From Eledone cirrhosa (taxonomy: Eukaryota), in assembly GCA_964016885.1 (NCBI GenBank), contig OZ024743.1, positions 154,814,001 through 154,878,000 on the forward strand: DNA of 64,000 nt. The letters are read 5' to 3'. Shown piece after piece: positions 9,771 to 55,200 of this stretch (the first letter of the stretch is position 1; each line of letters begins with the position of its first letter). Both the position numbers and the translations under genes were made by a program. Below the pieces are notes generated by a model. It was not told where the DNA came from and searched no databases. It saw only the letters and a program-made list of their open reading frames with translations.

Positions 9771-12700
9771 CTAGCCATGGCCGGCCATAGGCAACAACCT
9801 TTTGCCGGACTCAGCATATGATGAGGTTTTATTACCACTGCAATCAGAAGCGATACATTTGAAGGCAATTGAAGGCAATTTCTACCAATACTTGTTGGTT
9901 TTTATTGCTCATTATCGACAATAAATGACATTGAACATAAATGATAACTCTGTCAAAGCTCACAATACAGATGAAGGCTCACCAATGTCCAAATCATTTA
10001 CGTCGCTTATTGATAGCATTAAAAATATGCATACATCAGCTCAAAGCTTCATTGTAGACAATAGTCAGCGTTGTTCCTGTGTTAGTGGTATCAATTGCAC
10101 ATTTTATACCATCAGGATCGCACACTCGAGATACGGCAACATACAGTTGCCCTTGGCTGAATGCTGGACAATTCAAGTAGACACCGACTGGCTTGAAAGT
10201 CTGTTCCCGTGTCTTGTTGACAGTCATGGAGAAGGCCAAATTGACGGGAAACTGTGTCCTTTGCCAAATGAATGGCAGTAGATCTTCACTTGGTCTCAGC
10301 ATGATCCACGGAATAAGAAACGATTCCTCTCTGCCTGGGAGTTTAGCTTCTAAAACTCTTACGTTAATCAATCTCTCAACATTCAATCTGATACTATTGC
10401 AAATACCCATTTTATGATTGATATTTCTAAGCTATATAATCGGCATACCCTTTTTCGACCTCAAAATATGTGTGGGAAATCCGGTTATTTGAAGTGAATT
10501 CAGATACTCAGTCGGAACATCCATATTGTTCTTCTGATTAGGCTCCATTGTATCCGCACTGACGGTCAACCATTCCTCTCCACGAAACATTCCGGCAACT
10601 TGTGAATTTATATCATCGACCGTTGCATTCGTAATAGTTAGGATAACGCGTTCCGATATCCAGGAGATATTCTGCCAAAAAGCATTCAAAATAGGGAAGA
10701 ACCAGTCAATCAGTGCTTGGCGGTCCAGTGGCATGACCAAATGGACTGGGATTCTTACAGTGTGATTATCACCAACGTATGGCAATTCATTGTTTCCCAA
10801 CTGCATCAACCATCGGCCGTATGTCTCAGCCTCTTCGTCTTGCCCGAACATACGGAGTCGCATATTATCGTATAATCGCAAAACTCTAAAATGGCCCCTC
10901 AACGGGGACTTTTTCAGACATTCATCGACAATTTGCGCTCTTTGAGCATTCATAACAATTGGTAGCATCTGTCTGAAATCGCCACCAAGAACGATAGTCT
11001 TACCACCGAATGGCAGGTCACTACCGCCGATATCTCTCGAAGTTCTGACCAATGCCTCCAGCTAAATTCTGTGTGCCATAGGAGCCTCGTCCCAAATAAT
11101 CAGAGACGTATTGCGTATAAGGCCCGCGAGTTCACTTTGTCTTGTAATGTTACAGACACTCAACTCATCCGGAGCCAATGGAGCCTTGAAGCATGAGTGG
11201 AAGGTTCTTCCACCACTCAGCAAAATGGCAGCGAACCCACTGGTGGCCACAGGGAGAGCAATCTTCCTCTGAGCTCTGATTGCCGATAACATGTGTTCAA
11301 ACAGAATGTTTTTCCGGTGCCTCCTGGAGCATCTATGAAAGCACAAAGTTGCTCATTAGTGGAAATCGAGTGGAGAACGCCATCGACCAATTCTCTATGA
11401 AATTGGGTCAACATTGGCATACGTTCATCCACAATACGTTGCTTTTCCAGTGGATCAAACTGGAAGAGTTCCCTCCGATCAAGTGACAACCGTCTAAGCT
11501 GCAATCTCATGGTCAAATCTAAGACACGTTGCCGCATTTCTTCATCAGGAATTGGCAAATTGAAATCTGTTAAACATTTCAAATGAACTTCAAGCGGTTG
11601 CTCAATATTGAGCAAAACAATAGCCTTCATCAAACTTTCATCATCGACCTGAAGATGATGCCTGAAATCATCAGCCATAAATCCCCAATGGCGTTCAAAT
11701 AACTCTCTTGGATCGGCAGGGTTGCAGAATCCTAGAATCGTGACAAACAACTGCCTTATTTGAGCTGGCATCTGTGTTGTTCCTGCAGCTTCCATGGCGT
11801 TATTCCATTCAGCGTCATCCTGAAGGATTCCCAGATGTTGTCACGCAGCCTGATATGATTCATATTCCACGCCATTGATTGTTTTCAAATCAGCGAAGTT
11901 CTGTTTACCTCTCGAAAAATTACTATCCAACAGAATGCAGAAATAAAACACATCACCAGATGCTGGATGGACATTACAAACCCGTCCAATAATCATGAAT
12001 TTCAACTTTTGTTTTCTATCATTCCATTTCTTTCCCTTCTTATCCTACGTATAGTGCGAAGGAAAATCGCAGTAGAGTTGCCTTTGATCTGGGTTCAAAG
12101 CATGTTCCCTATTATGCTTGAACCACTCAGTCGATTCCGTCTTAGGGGGTGGTACGTTAGCAATTATTTCGACACCTCTACTAGTGTCCTGAAAACAGAA
12201 CATTTGCCTACTCTCTAAGTGAACCGTCAGTTTCTGAACGCTGGGTTTGCGTTCATTGAGATGAAAATCGAACAATCTCCAGCAAGCTTCGCTAGATCCA
12301 ATCGAGCGACCATCCTGGAACCTGCCAACATCATATCCTTCGTTCGCTTCCTCATTCCTGACATTGATCATTGCCCGCTCAAGACCTTTGTAAACATATT
12401 TGAATAGATATTTGCAAGCTTTCACTGAGCTACAAATTCCCACATTAATATGACAACGATATTTCATAATCAAATATGGATTGTATGGCTCAACCCATTG
12501 ATTTGTAACCTGTCGACCGTAAAATGATCAGCAAATGTGCATGTGACAATCCGCTTTTTCGGAATTCAATTATCTTTTTCCACATAATCCATTATCTTTT
12601 TCAGATATCCTTTGAATTCTCTTGCCACAATATCAGGACGGTCCTTTGACTGTTGTGGTGCCAAAAGTGCATCCTTAATATCAGTCAATTCAGGATTGCA

Positions 12701-14310
12701 TGTAACCGTTATAAACAAATCTGGCTTTCCAAACTTTCTGACAATACCAATTGCATTCTGATAGCAAATGTTCATATATCACGGGGCGCCGATGAACGAC
12801 GATGGCAAAATGATGCGTCGACCAAGTTGCTTGTAATTGGAATCATCGGCTGTTATCGCATCCTGTATATTATTATACAATTCAGCTCTGAAATGTTGCT
12901 GATGTGGAGCTATATAATTTAGCCTTTGATTTTCGATCTTTCCGTATGCCATACAACAGTATTCCTGGAACAATCTGCTGGCTTGAAATAGTGTATTTCT
13001 CTGTTGATTCTTCTCATTCAAATGGAACGCGTAAAAGTCGCGAATCGAATGATTGCTTCTATTGCCACCCCCCTGTTGATGCTGATTCTCATGATCATCT
13101 AAATGTTCACCTTTTGGAAATAAAAAACATAATGCAATGGATCGTATGCTCTATTTGTCTCATTGATAGTCTTGAAACCACCATCTCTGCGACTGAATAC
13201 GATATCTCTCGATCTAGGCTTATCGTCCATCAACACAGCAACTTCACAAAATCCCTCAGGGGCATTATATCGCCGTTCGTGTTGATACCTCGGCACTGCC
13301 TCAGCCATAATCACCAATGTTTGCTGCTGAACATTTTGCATTTCAGCCGCCAACATGAAATCCATAACATAAGGATTACACTGTCTAAGCCATAATTGCA
13401 AATCACGGATCAAATCACTTAAATTTTGCCGTTCAAGTTCAGTTATATATCTCGGCAACTTCATCCAACCGATCCTGATATCCTCTTCCGATTCACTATA
13501 ATCTGGATAGTGAACGTAAATTAGAGCAAATCGAAGCCATCTCCGAAGAAACATCTAAATTACCGATACAATGATACAAACGGCCTTGAATGACTACATT
13601 GGTCTGCTATTCTCCGCTCTCAAACATCTCACTAACTCTCTGCGATGCTAATGAATTGTTAATTTGCCGCGAATATTTGCGCGGTAATCTACTTCGGTCT
13701 CCTTGATCACCCCACATACTTAGTATTGTAAACTCCGGTGACACCTCATCATCCGGCATTCGCAAGAGGTTCTAGTTGAACTGCTCCTTTATGACAGCAC
13801 ATTGTGGTTCACGTCTTTTCGTGCCTCCAAAGCAATGCTCCACAATGTAGACACTCTGCTCGTTCACCTATCTGAAAATGACACGGTTGCCATGATCCAT
13901 TTTTAATATCATTCGTTCGCCTTCTAGCCTCTTTACTGGAATGAGGAGCACTTTGGCGACACATTCTCTGAACTTCTGTATTGCGCTGGCGCTGTTCAGC
14001 CAGATCCTCATTATCAATCGCAGCACGCCGTTGCTGCTGAATTATGGCCATCTGCTGATAATGCTCAGCCAGTTCGTCTTCAACCATTGTAGCACGCTGT
14101 AGCTGCTTGGCTCCAGTGTTTCGTTGGCGCTGTTTAGCCAGCTCCTCTTCATTCATGGCGGAACCTCTTCGCCTCTGAAGTTCAGCGTTCCGATGGCGCT
14201 CTTCGGCCCGTGTTTCTTCATTGCTGGCTGCACGCCGTCGCCGCTGTAGTTCACTGTTTGATAATGTCGAATTGCTTTTATTGTCAGTATTCATTTCGAG
14301 CAATTGTCAA
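9771..14310 (-). mobile_element. Helitron, degenerate autonomous RepHel (HUH Rep + PIF1-family helicase)
   Basis: N-terminal Zn finger CLHCGALLW...CC; Rep motifs FITVTCNP, IEFRKSGLSHAHLLI (~12526-12570) and KYLFKYVYKG; helicase motifs DAPGGTGKTF, IIWDEAPMAHR, GGDFRQMLP, QFPVNLAFSMTVNK and SQGQLYVAVSRV. Many stops and frameshifts. Candidate 3' palindrome plus CTAG at 9771-9815; termini are uncertain. Confidence 0.93.
10036..14303 (-). pseudogene. RepHel coding remnants (ORFs 13809-14303, 13099-13554, 12779-13021, 12566-12775, 12045-12473, 11217-11795, 11062-11346, 10432-11052, 10036-10410)
   Basis: Collinear fragments appear in canonical Helitron domain order. Confidence 0.9.
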
Positions 14311-16672: not shown

Positions 16673-18716
16673 GTGGGAAAGTGAAAAATCGGAGAATAGA
16701 CCGTTAAAACATGTTTATTGAAAATATCCCCTACGTACGTTTCGCCCAGTTGGGCTTCTCAAGGGCATAAACAGTCACAAGTGTTCCTTATATAGTTTGG
16801 AAAGAGATTTGGGGGTTAAATCGACATCAAGATTCATTGTTCGCAAAAATATCTTGTTTTGATTTTGCAGCAGGTCAAGGGAGGTAGCTTTGGCTGGTGT
16901 TAGGGCAGTCTTTCCCGGATAATTTTTGGTATGCAGGGATCGTTTTCTGGGTGTTGTTTTGCTGCGCCTGCCCGCCGGGGTGTTAAGACTTGTTGCAGGG
17001 TGATCCAGTGTGTTATTTCACTCTCCATTCTTAACCCATCTAAAGAAGGATATTTTTAAGCGATGTGTACAACTTATCGCTGTTTCAGCTCTGCTGTTGA
17101 TGAGCTAGTGGGGTGCAGTTATGATGTGGTAGAGCTCCATGAGGCAAAGATCGCATTTCCTCTTGAAGTTGTACGGTGCAGCCCTGTCGACAATCTTCCA
17201 GTGCGTGGAGAAGCTAATGTTTAAGTCCTTTAGTGATGTGATGTAGTCCGCGAGCGAGGTGGAGTGCCTTAGTTTTCTATTTGTGAAAGAGTGGAGATGT
17301 GTTCGAAACCTAATTTTGAACGGGCCGGAGGTGGCCCCTATATAATGTTTAACGCTATTGTGGCTAGTAATAGTGCATCTATATATAACCCTATCGGTCA
17401 AGCAGTATCATCTAAGGGGGCACCGTCCTCTGTCGCGGCAGTTGCAATTTCTGTCGCTGTTTCGTCTATTTCCCACGATAAGGCTATCATTGTTGCTGCC
17501 TACGTTGTTTGCTGTGCTACCGCAGCTGTCGTTAGCACAATTACAACCCACAGCACGCGGGATGGTGCGATTGTTATTCCGCACGCCATGTTTTGCATGC
17601 TCCCCAGTCACTTCGCGGTCATTCTGGTTGCGTCTGCGGATGCCGTTGCCAACACTATTGGATGCTGTCAGGGAGTTGTTAAGGCCGATACAGTTATTGT
17701 CAGGTGTAGGTGCGTCTGCGTCGAGGTGCTGTGTCTTGGTGATCTTACTGTGGTTCGTTGTTCCTATGATGTCTGCTAGGTTAGGAGTAGTAGAGAAGGA
17801 TATGTTTATATTGTTCCTATTAAGAATGTTTCTATACCTATGGTTGGGTGGGAAGTTCTTCTCTAAGGCTTCGAAGAATATCCGGGGTATGTTGGAGGCC
17901 ACACTTCGAGAGTAGGGGGGGGGGGGGGGGTGGAACCATAGGACGTTACGGTGGCGATTACGTGTCCTTGTACTTTTGCTACGGGTGGTTCCATCTAAGT
18001 GATCGCTCTTATGTGTGTTAATGCGCCGTCGCCCGTTCGGTGCCCCTTTCACTTTATGCTCGGGTGCACTCTTTCTACCACTTCCATGTTTATGTACACG
18101 AAGATGTTGGTTGGAAGGCGTTGGTAGTAGGCCGTCGCCTTTGTTGGTTTTGTAATAGGGGAATAGTTTGAGTAATCTACAGTATTCACCGTCGCCGGGG
18201 ACGTGATCTTTGGTGCGGTTATCTATTCTATTATATCCGACTTTACCGAGGTCGCCGCGTGATTGGTTATAGGTATGGCTTACTATAACGTTAGTTTTAT
18301 GAGGGGGGTGGTTTCTAGAGCTAGCGTTAGGGATGTAGGAAATTCCTCGGTTAAAGCCGGCGCTTATCAGGGCCCTATTGTAGTAATCAGCCGCTTGGTT
18401 GAAGATATCCTCATTGGCGGATAGTCTTGAGATTATATGTGAGATACTATAGACTATGGAGTTGAGAGTCTGCTTAGGGTGGTTGGAGGCATAATTAATA
18501 TAAGAGAGGCACTCTCCAGGCTTATGGTATGGTTTGTATAAGCCCGTACTCAACTCCAGGGTCACGTCCAGGAAGTTGACAAACCTGTGGTTGAGGTCCA
18601 TAGTTACGGATAGGCCGTATGACTTAAAGAACCTGTGTATATGTTTGTTAAGGTTCTCTATCCTACGGGGGCTATGGTTCCTAACGGTAAACAAGGCGTC
18701 GTCCCTATATATACCT
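16671..18716 (-). mobile_element. Naiad-like Penelope element, 5'-truncated (RT C-half + linker + GIY-YIG + 3' region with hammerhead)
   Basis: One continuous frame from ~18715 to 17018 with two internal stops (TGA 17408, TAG 17105). It encodes GIYRDDAL, VNFLDVTL, PYHKP, SNHP, LWFHPP, CNCRDRGRCPL, VIYRCTI...HYIGATSGPFKIRFRTH and KCDLCLME. Flanked by (TA)n. Confidence 0.92.
16725..16769 (-). ncRNA. Minimal hammerhead ribozyme, U3:A8 variant, in the 3' region of a Naiad-like PLE
   Basis: UAUGCCC-UUGAGAA-GCCC(aacu)GGGC-GAAA-CGUACG-UA-GGGGAUA: perfect 4-bp stem II, palindromic stem III, stem I with 6 of 7 pairs. Confidence 0.85.
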
Positions 18717-19689
18717 ATATATATATATATTTTTTTTTTTTATATATATATAAAAACACACACACCCACACAAATATATATATACCAAATAAAATAAACT
18801 GAGAGAAAACTATAAACTTGAGGGATAATAGAAGATTGGTATATCACTTTGGTAAAAACAAAGAATACAGGGAAAATAAAAACTACGTATATAACAGATA
18901 CAAATAAAAAAAAATACAAAAAAAAATGAAAAATAAAAAGTAAAGATAAGGAGCATGTTAGCAGGTTTTATATGGATGTGGTTTTAAGCGGTCAGATTAA
19001 CTCACAGCTCATTGGTTAATTGTGCGTCATTTTCCGTTGTCGGGCATGTCGCATACTTATGGTACCGTTGAGCAGTGGTATGGTAATTTCGCAATAACAA
19101 ATCAACTATTGATGATAGCGATTTCAAGACATAATTAATTACATTTTAAGCGATAAAACATATTTTAAATCTTCTAATAAAACCTATTATATTGATTATC
19201 CAGTTAATCATCCTTTATCCGCTATTAATACTCCAAGAAATACTAGCTACGGAATTTTCCGCAGTCCACCCGCCGAAAAACGTAACTAAGTAAACATCCT
19301 ATTGAGTCAGCTAGCATTGCAAGTTGAAAACTTCCTCGGTAAAGATTACGCGTAATCTGACCTTAGAAACCTTAAACGGTATGTCGTTTACTTTGATACT
19401 CCGCTCCCAGAAGGTCAAGCAACACATTCAACGCCCAGCTACAACATGGAAAAGCATCACATATGTCGTTGAAACACAAACCTATACCTACCAATAGGGA
19501 TTACATTCTCCTCATGATACACTCATATTGATTTTATCTATCGCATGAGATGAAAGCATACCACTATGGCAGGAAACATTCAAACATTGATAAGAACATT
19601 AAAAAGGAGAAATACGGCTGTAAATCTTGTAAAAACTCACGCTCCATGGTGGATTCTTTTGAACTGAAACCAGATGCAGATTCATGGTA

Positions 19690-27029: not shown

Positions 27030-28010
27030 ACTAACAACAACAGCAATAAGAAAACAACGCGCTAACAATAAACAAACTATCTGGTTCTATCCTCCCTTCT
27101 CACTCAGCGTTAAAACCAATGTAGGCAAACATTTTGTAGCCCTCTTAGATATACACTTTCCCATAGGCCATACATACCGCTCCATCTTTAACTGACACAA
27201 AGTAAAACTAGGATACTCCTGCGCTAAGAACAGGAAGGCCCACATAACCAACATTCCTAAGAGCAACACCCCACCAGGGTGCTCTTGCCGTACGCCCGAA
27301 GCTTGTCCACTTCAACAGCAATGCAACACACCCACTGTAGTTTATGAAGCTGTGGTCACTTCCAACCGACCAAATCAACCACAAGTGGTCAAATCCTATG
27401 TGGGTAAGGTGGAGGGCCTATTTAAGGAACGCTTCCTGAACTACCAGTCGACCTTTAGGTATACGGACAGACGTTCATCCACGAAACTCATAAGCCATGT
27501 ATGGTCCCTCAAAGACTCAAGAATAGACTACTCCATTCAATGGAAAGCCATCACTAAGTCCAAGCCATACGCAAGGGGAAATCCGTCCTGTGGGTTATGT
27601 ATTGTTGAGCGAATAAACATTCTAAAGATATTGCACAATAGCTATTGCCTAAACCCGAGGAATGAATTCTTAATACGTTGTCCACACGTCTGGAAATACC
27701 TCTTACATAACTACAAAGCTCCGGATTGAATTACAACAACATCCTAATTTTCTTATCTACTAGAAACTTTCGAACTTTCGCAGTTATCTCCCTTACACAT
27801 CTCGCACGCAATTTAGTATTGCCTGAGAGAAGTGACCGTTTCTGCGCATGCGCGTTCGTACGATTGTGCTTGCTGTTCCGTATAACCATGTCCATTACGA
27901 GCTGGGGATCCGCTAAGGTGAAACAATTGTTCTCGGTATGGTGAACTAACTGTTGTGTAACCACTTCTACTTAACTCGTAGGATGGACTGAGTGCTCTAC
28001 CACTACGGAT
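27030..28010 (+). mobile_element. Naiad-like Penelope 3' fragment (GIY-YIG endonuclease + 3' region)
   Basis: WFYPPFSLSVKTNVGKHF...GCSCRTPEACPL...VVYEAVV...SYVGKVEGLFKERFLNY...CGLCIVE...LNPRNEFLIRCPH (ORF 27352..27729). Confidence 0.9.
27892..27941 (+). ncRNA. Hammerhead ribozyme relic in PLE 3' region
   Basis: CCAUUACGAG-CUGGGGA-UCC(gcuaa)GGU-GAAA-CAAUUG-UU-CUCGGUAUGG. Core carries A6G; stem III is palindromic. Confidence 0.65.
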
Positions 28011-29397
28011 ATATATATATAGTGGTAGGCCACTATATATATATATATAATAACAGCAGGTTAGCCTAGTGTAATTCCTTGAAAGTTTTATTACACTATG
28101 ATCATTTCAATGACTGGGCTCAGTATGAATCCGGTGACATCATCATGTATTTGAAATATAACAAAGTAATATAATATACAAAACATATGGGGCTGCAAAT
28201 CAGAGACATGAGGGCGCCCGATCTTGTAGCAGCTTCTACCCCGTCCGACCGCTCTCGAGTGGTGATTATTAAACCTACTTATGTCCATCTGGTAAAGGGG
28301 CGCAGGCTTATAGTGTACTACTACCACCCCATCAATGACAGAGGCCAGCGTTGAGGTCAGCTTACAATCAAACTGGTCATGCTCGCTAGAATGTGCCGCG
28401 AAAAATATTATTTCAAAGAACATATATCTCTTCAACAAAGCTACATATAGTAATATATAGTGGGCGTTTGCATCTCATAAAGTATTGACAGAACAACGAT
28501 TAACAATTAGAAACGTTAAATTTATGTTTTAGTTTAGAAGATGCCATTTAATATGAAATTAGACGAATAAGCTTTTGGTTTAAAGTTATGAGATTTAGTT
28601 AAAGGAATTTACAGAAGCAGGCTTTTATGAAAAAGTTATGGTGTATTATAAATAGCCACGATAAAGTTTCAGGGTAGAATATAGAGTAAAGATGAAGCCC
28701 ATGCTTAGCGGTCAATAACCAGGAACGTGGCGGACCCCGGCCATCCCGTGTCCCAAAGGCGTGTCAGCTGTTCCGAGTATTATCGTCTAGCGAAAGAAAT
28801 TGACATTTAATTTTCCGAGCCTTCCAGGGGTGCTGACGGGAAATCCGCCACCATCGGCTGGCTATCGTATATACCAAACGTTTACTAGTTATCCACACTG
28901 GTGGGGAATTAATTAAGTGCTAGTAGAAGGAGGCATGATAAAGTTAAAAGTTATGATTAAGCCTAGAATTTAAAGGTACTGTTTGGCGGTTAATAACCGG
29001 TGGCGCGGCGGGTTCCAAGTCTGACAGGGCCCTAGGGCGAAGCAGCCGTTCCGAGTAATTTTGTTTGCCGAAAGAAGGGGAAATTTATTTTTCCAAGCAT
29101 TCTAGGAAGTCTGATCGGCCTGAGCGCCTGTCGTGCAGTCGGGAAAGCTGCCACATCCGTCGGATCATCGCGTGTACCAAATGATTATTAGTTATTCACA
29201 CGCGTGATGTGTAGTTGAAAGTGGTAAAATCTGATGGAATTTGCAAATAGACTATATATAGTCCCCAGTTAGTCCGGGTTATATGTAGTGTGGTTCTTGG
29301 GTGGGTAGGGGGAGTGAATAAAGATAAACAGATATAAGGGTACAGAGAGTAATATTCTAGGGTCCTGTGCTAAGGAGTACAATGACAAGTATATAAT

Positions 29398-29528
29398 TGT
29401 TTCTACGTTTTGGCACAATGCCACCAATTATCGAAGTGTATTACTGGTACTTTATTTTATCGACCCCCTAAGGATGAAAGCCAAAGTTAACCTCGGCGGG
29501 ATTTGAACTCAGTCCGTAAAGGGAAGTA
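29398..29528 (-). mobile_element. 5'-truncated tRNA-derived SINE with 17-bp target-site duplication
   Basis: Reverse complement matches the SINE at 55009-55200. TSD aatgacaagtatataat sits at 29381-29397 and 29529-29545. The insertion is absent from the opposite arm. Confidence 0.9.
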
Positions 29529-30063
29529 AATGACAAGTATATAATGAGACTAAAGCAAGTAAATAAATACATAAATAAAATGCAGTCGTATCTAGGGTAG
29601 TGATGTAGGGAGTAAAGAGGAACTATATAAGAACATATCCAATAAATCAAAATAGAGGAGAAATAAAGTACAGATCAAGGTGCAGTTGGAGAATACAAGG
29701 TTATACATATAGATATAGAGAATGGAAGAGTTGGAAGGGCAAAATGTGATACCTAGTGTATGTTCGAGTCTTAATTTTCAATGTGAATCCCCAAAACCCT
29801 GAAATATAGGATAGAGAATTCAGCTTTTTATTTATGTATTTATTTACTCGCTTTACTCTCATTATATACTTGTCCTTGTACTCAATACCACACGACCCTA
29901 CAATATTACTATCTGTACCCTTGTATCTGTTTATCTTTATTCACTCCCCCTACCCACCCAAGAACCACACTACATATATATAGTCTATTTGCAAATTGGG
30001 GGACTATATATAGTCTATTTGCAAATTCCATCAGATTTTACCACTTTCAACTTCACATCACGG

Positions 30064-30284
30064 GTGTGAATAACTAATAATCGTTTGGTACACGCGATGA
30101 TCCGACGGATGTGGCAGCTTTCCCTACTGCACGACAGGCGGTCAGGCCGATCAGTCTTCCTAGAGTGCTTGGAAAAATAAATTTCCCCTTCTTTCGGCAA
30201 ACGAAATTACTCGGAACGGCTGCTTCGCCCTGGGGCCCTGTCAGACTTGGAACCCGCCACGCCACCGGTTATTGACCGCCAAAC
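30064..30284 (+). ncRNA. Unclassified putative structured RNA unit B (mirror copy 28981-29201, minus)
   Basis: Nested helices AAUAACU/GGUUAUU, GUGGC/GCCAC, UUCC/GGAA, GACAGG/CCUGUC, UCAGG/CCUGG, CAGUC/GGCUG and UUCC..GAGU/ACUCGGAA. Confidence 0.5.
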
Positions 30285-30366
30285 ATTACCTTTAAATGCT
30301 GGGCTTAATCATAACTTTTAACTTTATCATGCTTCCTTCTACTAGCACTTAACTAATTCCCCATCA

Positions 30367-30586
30367 GTGTGAATAACCAGTAACCGTTTGGTATATACGA
30401 TGGCCAGTCGGCGGTGGCGGACTTCCCGTTAACACACCCGACGCTTAAGACAATTACATTCCAGGAGTGCTTAGAAAAATAAATGTCCATTTCTTTTGCT
30501 AGACGATAATACTTGGAACGGCTACACTAGGTGTAGCCCCGGGCTAGAGGGGGCTCCGCTATGCCGCTGGTTATTGATCGCTAAGC
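30367..30586 (+). ncRNA. Unclassified putative structured RNA unit A (mirror copy 28703-28898, minus)
   Basis: Paralogous to unit B. Helices AAUAACCAG/CUGGUUAUU, GUGGCGGA/UCCGCUAU and UUCC..GAGU/ACUUGGAA. Confidence 0.45.
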
Positions 30587-30719
30587 ATGGGCTTAAACTT
30601 TACTCTATATTCTAGCCTGAAACTTAATCGTGACTATCTATAATACACTTAAACTTTTCTATAAAACCTCCTTCTGTAAATTCCTTTAACTAAATCTCAT
30701 AACTTTAAACCTAAATCTT

Positions 30720-31502
30720 TGTAACGAATAATCCAGTTGTAACGGATAAGTGGAATTGTTGGTATGATGGTTTCAATGCAAAGAATAATACCAGGATTGT
30801 GTTGTTACAATGTTTATTTTATTATAATAATATTCCATTTGATTATTGAATGATAATATTCGTACAATAAGTAGGTGGCTCTTCGAATATACAAGTATCA
30901 CAGAAAACGATTATAATATAATCGTATTGTATCTGAAAGATACAATTTCACAAACAGAAATGGTGCTTGTAAAAATGCAAACAGTGTGAACTTACTATGT
31001 GTACGTTTGTGCGTATTAGTATACTTTCTTGTTTTAGCAGTAGTAGTAATCAATCAGCCAGGCGGGTAAAGCCTGTGAGAAATTAATAGACAGACGTTTT
31101 TCGTGAAGGGAGTTTTGACAGCGTAAGTGAAATACCTCTGTTCTTGTCTGTGGTATCAATTTTTCTGCCGACCGTAAACAACCCTTGTATTTATAAGGGT
31201 TGAAGTTAGAAGCATAGATATATCCTCTGAGCTCTTTTCTGCACGCTTAAACAACCTCTGACATGGGTTTAGCATCTCCCAAGGGGTTGGATTGCCGGGT
31301 GTAAACAACCCTTGTATTTACAACGGCTGAAGTTAGAAGGATGGATATATCATCTGCCCTCTTTTCTGCCTGGTGTAAACAACATCTGACCTGCGTTTAG
31401 CATCTCCCAAGGGGTTGGTCTGTCGGGCGTAAACAACTAACCACGGCTTGTCCCAGAGGCGGGAAAGCTCAGATTCGGTTTTGACTCTTCGCCGCCGTTA
31501 TA
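30720..31502 (-). repeat. 3' LTR of Gypsy element (~783 bp)
   Basis: Inverted termini TGTAACG...CGTTATA. A polypurine tract GGGAGGGGG (minus strand, 31507-31515) lies immediately upstream. Confidence 0.75.
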
Positions 31503-34500
31503 GTAGCCCCCTCCCAGTGAGAAAGCTAAAGATTGAACGATCTAGGTAAATGTGAAATTAAGATGACTAGGTGTTTTGTTAAATAAAATCAGAAAAAAAA
31601 ATACATTAAAGTCATTTATAAACAGGCGAAATGAAAGAAATCATGCACAGCAAAACAAATTTCGATGCAGGAAAATGTACTGTGATGTTACATAAAATTG
31701 AAAATGTTCATTCATTTCATAGAAATGGGAAAATGTTCTTTTATCTGTTCTCTTGAAGTGTATGATGCGCAGAGTCAATTGATTTTTGTGTAGCAATAGT
31801 TCATGACCACAGAAAGTGGACGATTCGTTGAAATGTACAAATTAGTCGAAATGTCGACTAGGTGCATAATTTGTACTTACCCGATAAACTTGTACGTATC
31901 GCGTGGGCCATCGAACTGTTCCTCCATATTTTGTGTGTCGGGGTTGTGCAGGATTTGTTGTGTTTGTGCCGGGTAAAGTTGTTGGTGAGTCTGCTGGAGA
32001 AATGGTGGGTACTGGTGGAAAATCCTGTTCCATGAACGCTTTTTTTAAACCGTCAATGGAGACGGTATTTCGTTTCCCGTTCAAGTCGAGGATGAATTAA
32101 TTAGGGTGTTTCTGTATCACATTATAGGGCCCGGAATACGGCGGACGAGGTTGCGTTGGAATACCGTCATTTCTAACGAAAACATGCATCCATGTATCGA
32201 TGTATTTTGGTATGGTCGAATTAACGTGCTGTTGTTTAGGGGCTGAAGGAGACAGGTGCGACATCGATGACCGTAAACGGTGCACATATTTTGTTGGGTC
32301 TGGAAGTTCTTGTGTCAAAACAGGAGCGAACCTTTGTCCTGGTACAGCGAGTACAGTCCATAAACCATTTTAGCCGGATAATGTCCGACTCCCTCCTTAA
32401 CAGTGGAACGAATACCAGGAAGAATGAGTGGGAGGTATTCGAACCAGTTAGTGGAGTCTGTGGAAGCCTTGATGGCTGATTTTAGCTGACGGTGGAAACG
32501 TTCTAACATGCCGTTAGCTGCAGGGTGATACGCCGTTGTACGGATGTGTTTACACCCGAGGAAACGAGTCAACACGGTAAAGAGCTACGAATCTAACTGA
32601 CGTCCTCTATCCGTAGTGATGGTCGCGGGCGTGCCGAAACGCGAAACCCAGTGAAACATTAGTGTTTTGGCGACAGTTTCCACGGTAATATCCGTCAGGG
32701 GAAAAGCTTCTGGCCAACGACAGAATCAGTCGACACAGGTGTGAATATGAGTGTAGTTGTGAGAAGAAGGCAAAGGTCCAACGATGTCTATGTGCACATG
32801 TTGGAATCGTGCATCAAGTGTTGCGAAAGAACCGTTCGGGGCTTTGTTGCGCCGGCAAATGTTCGCCTTCTGGCACACGATACAGGTCCTAGCCCATTCG
32901 CTGGTGTCCTTGTTGATATTGGGCCACACAAAGCGGGCAACCATCAGTCTCTTCGTGATAGTTCCTCGTCATCCTGTTGATCCGCTGAAATCTTCTGGAG
33001 ATCGATAGTGGCAGTGATGTGGATTTCGTTAAGCTCCATGTGCGACAGGACATCACCTGCTGAGTTGGTGGCACCCTTAATGTACCGTTTGTCAGTAGTG
33101 TACTGAGAAATCAAGTCCAGATGTCGGACCTCCCTGGGTGAATGGCGATCAGGCTTGGCGTTGAACGCGTACACTATTGGTTTGTGGTCGGTGTATATGG
33201 AGAACACACGTCCTTCTAGCATGTGTCGAAAATGCTTGACAGCAAGCTGTGCTGCCAATAAATCACGACTGAATGTGCTGCACCTAGTTTCGGCGGGATT
33301 TAATCACTTAGAGAAAAAAGATACAGGTCGCTAAATATCGCCAGAGAGTTGTTGAAGCACACCGCCAACTCCCTAATTGGATGCATCAGTCAATAAACAC
33401 ATTGGGGCGTCAGGTTTGGGGTAACTCAGATTGGTAGCTTCAGACAACATCTTCTTCAACTCAGCGAAAGCGTTACATTCTCTTTCGCTGAGATTGATGT
33501 TTGCGTTTTTAGGTGTACGCTGCCGCAGCAAATATGTGAGCGGTTAGGCTGACTCTGCACATTGGGGTATAAATCTTCTGTAGTAGTTCACCAGGCCAGG
33601 AAATTCTCGCAGTTTGCGAGGAAAATGTGGACTGTGGAAAATCAATGATGGATTTGACCTTCTCCTTACTTGGGCGAATGCCAGCTCCATCAATGATATG
33701 TCCAAGAAAATGAAGGGACGCAACTCCGAACTCACATTTGCTGGGGTTGATAACAATTCCGTATTCTCGCAAACGTGCGAATAGCAGGTGCAGGTGCCTC
33801 TCATGTTCTTCAACGGAGCCGCTGGCCACCAGTAACTCCTCGATGTATTCGTATACAAAAGGTAGACGTCTGGTGACTGTATCGATGAATCGTTGCAATG
33901 CCTGCGCTGCATTACGCAAACCTAAAGGCATACGCAGGAATTCGAACATTCCAAAGGGTGTTGTGACGGTGGTCTTTGGAATATCAGCGGGCTCCAGAGG
34001 TATCTGATTGTAAGCTCGCACACTATCGATCTTCGAAAATATGCGAGATCCGTGCAGCCAACTAGAGAAGTCATGTAGATGAGGAACTGGATAGGAGTCA
34101 GGCACAGTGCAGTTGTTCAGTGCACGGAAGTCGCCACCGATTCGCCAGTCGTTCGTCGACATCTTGTGTACACAATGTATGGGTGAGAACCAGTTGCTAC
34201 TTGACGGACGTATGACGCCGAGATCCAGCATGTGTTGAAATTCTTGTCTGACGGAATTCAGACGGTCTAGAGGTAGCCTTCGAGGTCGTGCAGCGACAGG
34301 TGGGACGTGGGTTTTTATGTGGTGGGTGACGTCATGTTTTCCAGGGCAGGCGTTGAATACGGATCGAGCAACGTCTGGGTATTTGTTGATTATATGGTTG
34401 TCGCGGGATGTTGTTGCCGATCGCGAAATGACTGGACTGAATGTGGCTGTCCGAGCGGCTATGCCGCGCACAGCGAGCCCAGTGGAGTTGTCAACGAGTC

Positions 34501-35600
34501 GATGGTTTTTCAGGTCCACTAGCAGTGAAAACTGCTGAAGAAAATCAGTCCTAAAATATGGGTCGGCAGCTTAGCCACAACGAATAACCACTAGAAAGTG
34601 CGGTGTAGTCCTAAATTTAGTGTCCGGCACCGCTCTCCGTAGGTTGGAATAGGTGAATGATTCTCCGCATGGAACCAGGTTGGTGTTTCTTTCCTTTTTG
34701 CAGGAACGCAGAAAACCGGGGTGATGCTGACTTCAGCCCCGGTGTCGACCAGGAACGCGTGCCTGCAACGCGATCCTGAATGAAAAACAGGTAACTTTGA
34801 TTATGAGGGCCAGAAAAGTCCGTCGCATTCAGTTTTCTGGCTGTGTCGTTTCTCTGTTTCGATCTCGGCACAAATGAACAGGGATAGCTGTACTTGCGTG
34901 CCCGTCTTCCTAATTTTTGGTGGGAGCAACGCATTTCTGGTGAATCACTACCAAATCGGCAAGTTCCACTGTTAGACCTACGCTTGCCATGGTTACCCTG
35001 TGACAAGTTCTGAATTTGTTGCGTCAAGACCTGTGTTGCTTGCTGTGCCAGTAACTGGTGTAGATCGGGCATATTTGTGGCACTGGATGGCTGAAGGAAA
35101 GGATTCGTGAAGGCACGGCTGGCGTCACATTCGCTAAAGTTGAGTAGGGATGGTACCTCCATGATCTTATCTGCCAGCTTGACGAGCTCTTTAATGGAGG
35201 TGGACTCTCTGGTGGGGGCTAAGATAACTTGTGTGGCAGAAGGCATACGCAGAAGGCATAACTTGTGTGGCAGAAGGCATACGCAAGAGTTGCTTGAACA
35301 TGTCATCTGTGAGTTTATGTTCTCCCAGGAACTGCTTCATTCGCCGTAGGAGTTGCGTCGGCTTTTTATCTCATAATTCCTCCGATATGAGAAGTTGGTG
35401 CAAGCTGTTCTTCTGCGTCTCCGACGTCCTCTTAATTAACGTCGTTTTAAATGTGTCCTATGATACAGAGCCGGTTGGTGCTAAAATGAGGTCTCAAACC
35501 TCATTCATAATATCCGGAGGCTTCGAACCAATGACGTGTGAGACGAGATGTCCTGCCAACGATCCGGTTCGATGTAATCGATGTGCGCAAACCACACATG
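30720..35600 (-). mobile_element. Ty3/Gypsy LTR retrotransposon, degenerate, 5' LTR missing
   Basis: gag (LHQLLISEEL...KPTQLLRRMKQ; LADKIME), protease region (LFFIQDR...), RT (WRIGGDFRALN, FSKIDSVRAYNQIP, TPFGMFEF, YIEELLVAS), RNase H (AVKHFRHMLEGR...TDHKP) and integrase (HVHIDIVGPLP, TTAYHPAANGMLERFHRQLK), in RT-RH-IN order. Confidence 0.95.
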
Positions 35601-46813: not shown

Positions 46814-46903
46814 GAGGTTAACTTTGCCTTTCATCCTTACGTGGTCGATAAAATAAAGTACCAATGACTACTGGCCTTGTGCCAAAAGTAGAAACAATTA
46901 TTA
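46814..46903 (+). mobile_element. SINE 3' fragment
   Basis: gaggttaactttgcctttcatccttacg.ggtcgataaaataaagtacca...ggccttgtgccaaaagtagaaacaatt matches 55101-55200. Confidence 0.85.
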
Positions 46904-55008: not shown

Positions 55009-55200
55009 GGGTGGCGGTTTGGCAGTATCGGTAGAGCGTCGGACAACATGCTTTGTAGCACAGAGTTACGCCCCTTTCTGATCTGAGTTCAAATCCTGCT
55101 GAGGTTAACTTTGCTTTTCATCCTTACGGGGTCGATAAAATAAAGTACCAGTAATGCACTGGTTAATTGCTGGCCTTGTGCCAAAAGTAGAAACAATTAT
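55009..55200 (+). mobile_element. Full-length tRNA-derived SINE
   Basis: Pol III A-box-like TGGCAGTATCGG and B-box GAGTTCAAATCC. The body is shared with copies at 29398 and 46814. Confidence 0.85.

Follow-up and report, generated by a model that had tools for sequence, protein, structure and literature searches.

What are the four related, GC-rich units of about 200 nt that lie in the arms of a foldback within otherwise AT-rich DNA of Eledone cirrhosa, and do they act as RNA? The stretch that we analysed (hereafter the window) comprises 64,000 nucleotides of contig OZ024743.1. An earlier note, made from its sequence alone, had proposed that the units represent a new structured RNA borne by a transposable element or a virus.

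Two decayed insertions of one repeat

All four units were found by alignment and sequence inspection where the earlier note had placed them, and each contains the seven motifs that it had named. In the left arm, on the minus strand, the upstream unit (B) occupies positions 28981..29201 and the downstream unit (A), which has a 25-nt deletion, occupies 28703..28898, as judged by alignment. In the right arm, on the plus strand, unit B occupies 30064..30284 (with a predicted rod at 30083-30284) and unit A, which is locally rearranged, occupies 30367..30586, as judged by folding. A covariance model scored these copies at 197, 113, 216, and 169 bits, respectively, and they were its only strong matches when run on the window. 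The two B copies are identical at 212/221 positions and the two A copies at 155/195, and B matches A at 152/213 and 138/195 positions (about 71%). We also observed a quasi-palindrome rewrite at ~30520-30540 in the right-hand unit A.

The foldback was likewise borne out, with arms that are 84-94% complementary. Its left arm (28044..29397, minus strand) is the 3' part of a non-coding element resembling Penelope-like elements (PLEs), covering monomer positions ~600-1945 and ending just beyond a hammerhead-like motif. This arm is 80% identical by blastn to a natural monomer from locus L272, and most of 28 other loci have an equal span. A (TA)n-rich target at 28008..28043 adjoins the 3' end. Facing it is a second copy of the element, inverted and truncated (29826..30719, plus strand, monomer 565-1443), which forms the right arm. 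Between the two lie rearranged 5' pieces of the element (29525..29822, minus strand, comprising monomer 517-264 on the minus strand and 565-621 at 29525-29580) and an unrelated SINE-like repeat (29393..29529), further copies of which occur at 46814-46902 and 55019-55200. Inverted insertions with rearranged 5' ends are ordinary for PLEs; the window foldback is one of them, and both of its copies are decayed. The four units therefore stand as two insertions, one of them inverted, of a single repeat, and not as four independent examples. Identity between the arms (28569-29397 versus 29861-30719) falls from 93-96% by the spacer to 79-87% farther out, which suggests either gene conversion between the arms or two source RNAs.

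Other mobile sequences are present nearby. At 27196-28008 (plus strand) lies the 3' part of a coding PLE, including a Zn-finger linker and a GIY-YIG-like C-terminus, for which a genome search gave 57,191 first-look candidates. It has a degenerate hammerhead-like 3' UTR and meets the non-coding element tail-to-tail at the same (TA)n, and both tails share TAACTC...GAGTGCTCT. On the minus strand we noted Helitron-like Rep/helicase remnants (10036-14306, identified by eye), a second PLE reverse transcriptase (RT) fragment (17408-18739), and an LTR-type RT (33509-35336, Pfam RVT_1). A tandem repeat of ~127 bp with GTAAACAAC is located at 31166-31437 on the plus strand.

A non-coding Penelope-type carrier

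Unit B is a dispersed repeat in the ~3.0-Gb genome, as seen from 1,491 first-look candidates of which 40 were scored. A 25-nt motif from its 5' end has 175 exact matches (control, 0), and the tip pattern described below has 999, or 1,594 when its loops are left free (reversed controls, 0). Further families were traced from depth peaks over unit tips. The units do not travel alone, because a same-strand pseudo-LTR (pLTR) lies ≤1.5 kb downstream in 28/30 core-sampled loci, and again in 28/30 loci of a second, partly overlapping sample. Each B+A pair sits within a non-coding element of ~2.1-2.7 kb, and the two units of a pair are tandem duplicates of one internal module of this Penelope-type element.

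The anatomy of the carrier was examined in 78 of 96 distinct insertions (18 were dropped, and a few rows are paralogue-alignment artefacts). Their 3' ends form two clusters past the hammerhead-like motif and their 5' ends are scattered. Inverted copies occur at the 5' junction of 16 of the 78, and (TA)n is found at the insertion end in 45, scored as (TA)4 ≤60 nt from the 3' end. The pLTR comes from head-to-tail tandems in L052 and L272, the latter being a dimer with a period of 2,077 nt; the monomer in L197 is ~2.7 kb. A fixed 3' end, variable 5' truncation, inverted 5' copies, a tandem pLTR, and AT-rich or (TA)n sites are thus all present, in agreement with the PLE features given in excerpts of PMC8557442. 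A DNA transposon with terminal inverted repeats was rejected because the inverted ends differ in length. The longest ATG ORF in the L272 monomer is 116 aa and of low complexity. An IRES, which the earlier note had listed among its suggestions, is unlikely, as it would find no ORF in the monomer to serve.

The 3' repeat of the element contains AUAC-CUGAUGA-stem II-GAAA-U(GAUC)A-UA-GUAU, which is predicted from its sequence to have the layout of a minimal type I hammerhead. Hammerheads are known from PLEs (excerpts of PMC6155905). The GAAA, the AUA triplet, stem I, and a palindromic loop III are present, and the base of stem II is U-U. The CUGAUGA core is intact in 26/30 sampled genomic copies and mutated in the window, where the decayed motif (AUAC-[C>A]UGAUGA-stem II-GAAA-U(GAUC)A-UA-GU(A>G)U) occupies 28093..28150 on the minus strand. 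Genome-wide, there are 5,551 exact matches to its 29-nt 3' half. An Rfam scan of the pLTR gave no hammerhead match, and inspection by eye recognised no RT or GIY-YIG frame upstream of 30 sampled motif loci. Further GC-rich hairpins, partly common to families, lie upstream of the hammerhead-like motif (L052:1990-2200 and window ~28170-28400, minus strand), and the element may contain additional structured domains. A more diverged element at L154:2960-3355 has a related tail (about 72% identity to the tail) and a hammerhead core. We also noted clusters of near-identical copies in L103-L108 (G000:C4:77.58-77.61 Mb) and L017/021/028/029 (C3:89-90 Mb), which have spacings of 4-7 kb and ~130-300 kb and are likely segmental duplications.

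A tree of 48 units, rooted by midpoint only, has one ladder of upstream units and a mirror-image ladder of downstream units, joined where the subfamilies are most decayed. The two units evolved in parallel along this subfamily ladder, and in one young family the upstream unit has been duplicated a second time. Along the ladder, the upstream unit drops a GUGUGAAUAAC leader and an A-box-like string and its basal stem is rewritten and shortened, while the tip GAGU-..-GGAAA(AAUNRA)UUUCC-..-UUUCG(N5)YGAWA-..-ACUC is kept.

These family data bear on the proposal that the units are either two tandem Pol III genes for small RNAs, as in the VA RNAs, or a signal derived from a virus, a reading that tandem GC-rich rods of ~200 nt amid AT-rich DNA would fit. 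The A-box-like string on which it drew is indeed present in all four window units. However, this string and the 5' leader are missing from several younger families, T-runs occur inside some units, and the units are tied to the pLTR. No conserved B box was seen by eye, ARAGORN found no tRNA, and the units had no matches (0) in viral and metagenome contigs. We consider a Pol III gene pair or a viral signal extremely improbable.

A constrained tip on a predicted RNA rod

The strand chosen in the earlier note is the transcript strand, as judged from the fixed 3' end and the hammerhead-like core. Each unit is predicted to fold as a rod on this strand. Among the window copies, stability relative to shuffled sequences gave z-scores of -2.37 (B-right), -2.14 (A-right), -1.01 (B-left), and -1.36 (A-left), versus -0.81 and -1.78 for the opposite strand of the right pair; these values are modest and are therefore weak evidence on their own. 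The majority sequences of six subfamilies, which represent 129/152 units after 15/167 were dropped for gaps, also fold into rods, with z-scores of -1.9 to -7.1 in the sense orientation and -0.3 to -3.0 in antisense (alifold, -67 versus -46). Across eight families, the corresponding ranges are -1.3 to -4.4 and -0.5 to -3.5, and a three-way junction is present in 7/8 minimum-energy folds. In one of these families, antisense is as stable as sense (-3.5 versus -3.4). The majority sequence of the A type falls short of the full junction. Real changes between subfamilies retain stability better than randomly placed ones in 9/12 sense and 2/12 antisense comparisons, which are not independent of each other. 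The earlier claim of a transposon-borne RNA structured on this strand is supported by the carrier element and by these sense-strand folds.

Evidence at the level of individual pairs is mixed. Across 21 natural copies, pairing holds for 89% of cells, and a two-sided change is seen in 32 (0/500 shuffles), although pairs of this sort are not unusually numerous (183/500). Compensatory pairs such as G-C/A-U (11:6) and U-A/C-G (6:5) were observed, but a tree-aware scan of 141 copies gave no significant pair (best E, 3.9). Across families, pairs are kept no more by internal than by private changes (79/213 versus 183/496), and there is no excess of G-U over A-C (51:42 internal versus 141:113 private). 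A within-family test of pair keeping was positive (30/59 versus 274/772, p=0.024), with a structure derived from the same sequences, which makes it partly circular. ADAR-driven A>G change as a source of G-U pairs was unsupported, with 20 A>G and 24 T>C lineage changes. Several specific pairings in the earlier note require revision. A 5' helix between AAUAAC and GUUAUU has a pair probability of ≤0.02 in six subfamilies, and the putative GUUUGG/CCAAAC pseudoknot is predicted instead as a nested closing helix with the 3' end (p 0.67-0.99). Among the rows viewed, the GAUAACUAG and AAUAACCAG variants, which had been put forward as covariation, apparently occur in no copies but those of the window. 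We conclude that the folding models support the rod as overall stability of the RNA strand and that the junction is a prediction.

The part of the unit that stands out is a 50-nt tip with the pattern GAGU..GGAAA-AAUNRA-UUUCC..UUUCG-N5-YGAWA..ACUC. It is located at 30163..30212 (plus strand) in the right-hand unit B, where it forms the predicted three-way junction, and at 29053..29102 (minus strand) in the left-hand unit B by sequence and alignment. Decayed versions occur in unit A at 28775..28824 (minus strand, sequence and alignment) and 30465..30514 (plus strand, alignment). The tip is under strong sequence constraint. Internal relative to terminal substitutions number 23/285 within it versus 371/1388 elsewhere (p=1.4e-9), a count that used 227/266 copies (39 dropped) from a sample chosen in part by the tip motif. 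For loci not picked by the tip, the counts are 6/178 versus 105/1074 (p=0.008). The near-invariant bases include the AAU..A loop and the GCUY linker, while the surrounding stems drift and shorten; two of the three junction linkers vary. The tip helices yield no covariation because they barely vary. A polyadenylation signal in the loop was rejected, as AAUUGA and AAUCGA loops occur in whole families.

Such constraint need not reflect function. Because PLEs routinely make inverted repeats, the units might be neutral relics of an old internal foldback whose apparent conservation comes from homogenisation or sampling, and the null pair-level tests and the use of the tip motif in choosing part of the sample are compatible with this idea. 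Against it are the persistence of tip constraint in loci chosen by other means, the strand asymmetry in stability retention, and the retention of both units along a long subfamily ladder, followed by re-duplication. Neutral origin is therefore highly doubtful. Somewhat less improbable, yet still quite unlikely in our estimation, is that the rods are general stabilising or compacting structures that protect uncapped, hammerhead-cut RNA and have no specific partner. Retrozyme RNAs are predicted to be highly self-paired (excerpts of PMC7229834), and the selection seen here acts on overall stability rather than on particular pairs, but general stabilisation leaves near-invariant loop and junction bases unexplained while stems drift.

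We also weighed whether the tip works as DNA, that is, as an internal promoter or enhancer, present in duplicate, for transcription of the element, with the rod being secondary. The tip contains two short palindromes, GGAAA-N6-TTTCC and TTTCG-N5-CGAAA, and its GGAAA/TTTCC half-sites presumably resemble Rel/NFAT sites. Furthermore, the tip is kept in sequence and not by covariation, in isolation it does not exceed shuffles in stability (z -1.2 to +0.5), and a promoter would be required by master copies. Nevertheless, the tip lies at the predicted apex of the rod in 7/8 families despite their differing stem sequences, stability is retained on the RNA strand, and the few fixed changes in the tip are G-U compatible (G-C>G-U in 6/20; G-U/G-C 15:3). 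We judge a DNA-level role to be unlikely.

Finally, the three-way junction could be the scaffold of a new ribozyme in each unit, self-cleaving or ligating, given invariant bases at the predicted junction, an element class known for ribozymes, and the lack of any Rfam match. This notion fares poorly because the element already has a hammerhead core, two of the three junction linkers vary, a mid-element cut would truncate the template, and there is no peak of insertion ends at the units. An apparent peak at monomer position 796, which might have indicated processing at unit ends, is a paralogue-alignment artefact. There is only a slim chance that the units are ribozymes.

Possible function and relation to known systems

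The reading that we favour, by a modest balance of probability, is that each predicted rod is a cis-acting RNA module whose conserved tip binds a protein that aids the copying of the element's RNA. The constraint on the tip implies that it helps the RNA to be made, retained, or delivered, because only copies that mobilise well as masters leave subfamilies. The non-coding element is likely mobilised in trans. It would be transcribed from tandem copies, and its hammerhead, judged by sequence, may cut the RNA to ~2.1-kb monomers. The RT/GIY-YIG protein of an autonomous PLE would then reverse-transcribe this RNA, starting in the pLTR tail. In excerpts of PMC11167929, a PLE protein binds RNA and initiates in an AC-rich stem-loop downstream of the hammerhead. 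The element has an AC-rich stretch in the same place, which the two 3'-end clusters appear to fit. Since RT binding and initiation map downstream of the hammerhead in that study, the rods are probably not the RT start site. They might rather expose the tip for recognition by a factor, either from the host or associated with RT, that acts in export, stabilisation, or docking near ribosomes that make RT. The two rods could be used much as the two Alu arms, which are bound by SRP9/14 (excerpts of PMC11581171), by analogy. A more far-reaching version, which we put forward only tentatively, is that the tip is a new protein-docking RNA motif with which a non-coding Penelope parasite captures the RT of unrelated coding PLEs, either at the ribosome or in an RNP, and that a 2-kb hammerhead retrozyme has here independently evolved an Alu-style dimer.

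The genome abounds in coding PLEs with a C-terminal GIY-YIG. The two coding families examined yielded no autonomous partner with the same pLTR; both are without the unit and the pLTR. The first family (29 loci) gave no unit match. In the second (36 loci), which is young and has intact 758-aa frames, the unit occurs at a single chimeric junction and nowhere else, and the pLTR is present solely as a separate insertion. At that junction (L220:1-1500, G000:C1:58.22 Mb), the 465-codon end of the young coding PLE is fused to a 5'-truncated element at the unit tip. A template switch could have produced this fusion, and the 758-aa-ORF family, with its many intact copies, is a possible helper.

On how non-coding PLE derivatives such as retrozymes gain access to RT, the excerpts of the sole in vitro PLE study map only RT binding and initiation near the hammerhead (PMC11167929). 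The graded subfamilies mark a 50-nt motif of which selection has preserved two copies in each element while the stems around it drifted. The tip can thus serve as a defined bait in the search for a binding factor, and its removal as a defined deletion in mobilisation assays.

No known RNA family accounts for the units, as the earlier note had stated. Rfam scans covered the window, the units of a second family, and the pLTR of that family; the window gave no match at gathering score, and the scans gave chance matches only (E 2.3-8.7). Adenovirus VA RNA I/II and EBER1/2 are tandem, GC-rich, stem-rich units of similar size. Unlike these, the units described here are without conserved A/B boxes, are not viral, and never occur solo. 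Derivation from 7SL, prompted by a likeness of motifs, was rejected for want of an nhmmer or Rfam match; among 18 local alignments to host 7SL, the best was equalled in 6/200 shuffles, and none was notable after multiple testing. About 20 host 7SL (SRP) RNA genes are arranged in tandem at a spacing of 1.2-1.4 kb in L275-L280 (G000:C12:42.10-42.13 Mb).

The likeness to the Alu dimer and SRP9/14 is a functional analogy only. In both cases two tandem structured arms belong to a non-coding RNA, which for Alu borrows the RT of another element (excerpts of PMC11581171) and here may do so. Unlike Alu, the units have no similarity to host 7SL, are internal to a 2-kb RNA, and have no Pol III boxes or poly(A) tail. 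The carrier shares the pLTR, hammerhead-like motif, optional tail, inverted 5' copy, and (TA)n microsatellite targets with C-terminal GIY-YIG PLEs (Neptune/Nematis) and with the non-autonomous MRC1 of Chlamydomonas, as far as these are described in excerpts of PMC8557442. It differs from coding PLEs in having no ORF and no pLTR similarity to the two families examined, which lack the rod. A reading of the 3' hairpin as Naiad/SECIS was dropped, as the neighbouring coding PLEs have a C-terminal GIY-YIG.

Our literature search, whose coverage was incomplete and did not extend to supplements, Dfam, or Repbase, found no description of the element or motif. The carrier could already be in the PLE consensus file of PMC8557442 or in Dfam/Repbase, while the conserved RNA motif is apparently undescribed. 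The excerpts of PMC6962438 count hammerheads in a squid genome and go no further.

The closest resemblance is to non-LTR (animal) retrozymes, which have been proposed to be non-autonomous PLE derivatives and which are likewise non-coding, with a type I hammerhead-like motif per monomer, head-to-tail repeats, and RNA predicted to be self-paired (excerpts of PMC7229834 and bioRxiv 10.64898/2026.07.22.740005). Retrozyme monomers are ~200-400 nt in these sources, in contrast to the ~2.1-2.7 kb found here, so the element departs from the short-monomer definition. Its copies are also mostly dispersed, 5'-truncated, and inverted, and it has a discrete duplicated module with a conserved tip. The best reading of the carrier is therefore a long, retrozyme-like, non-autonomous PLE, which widens the range of retrozyme-like elements to include multi-domain RNAs of 2-3 kb with thousands of copies.
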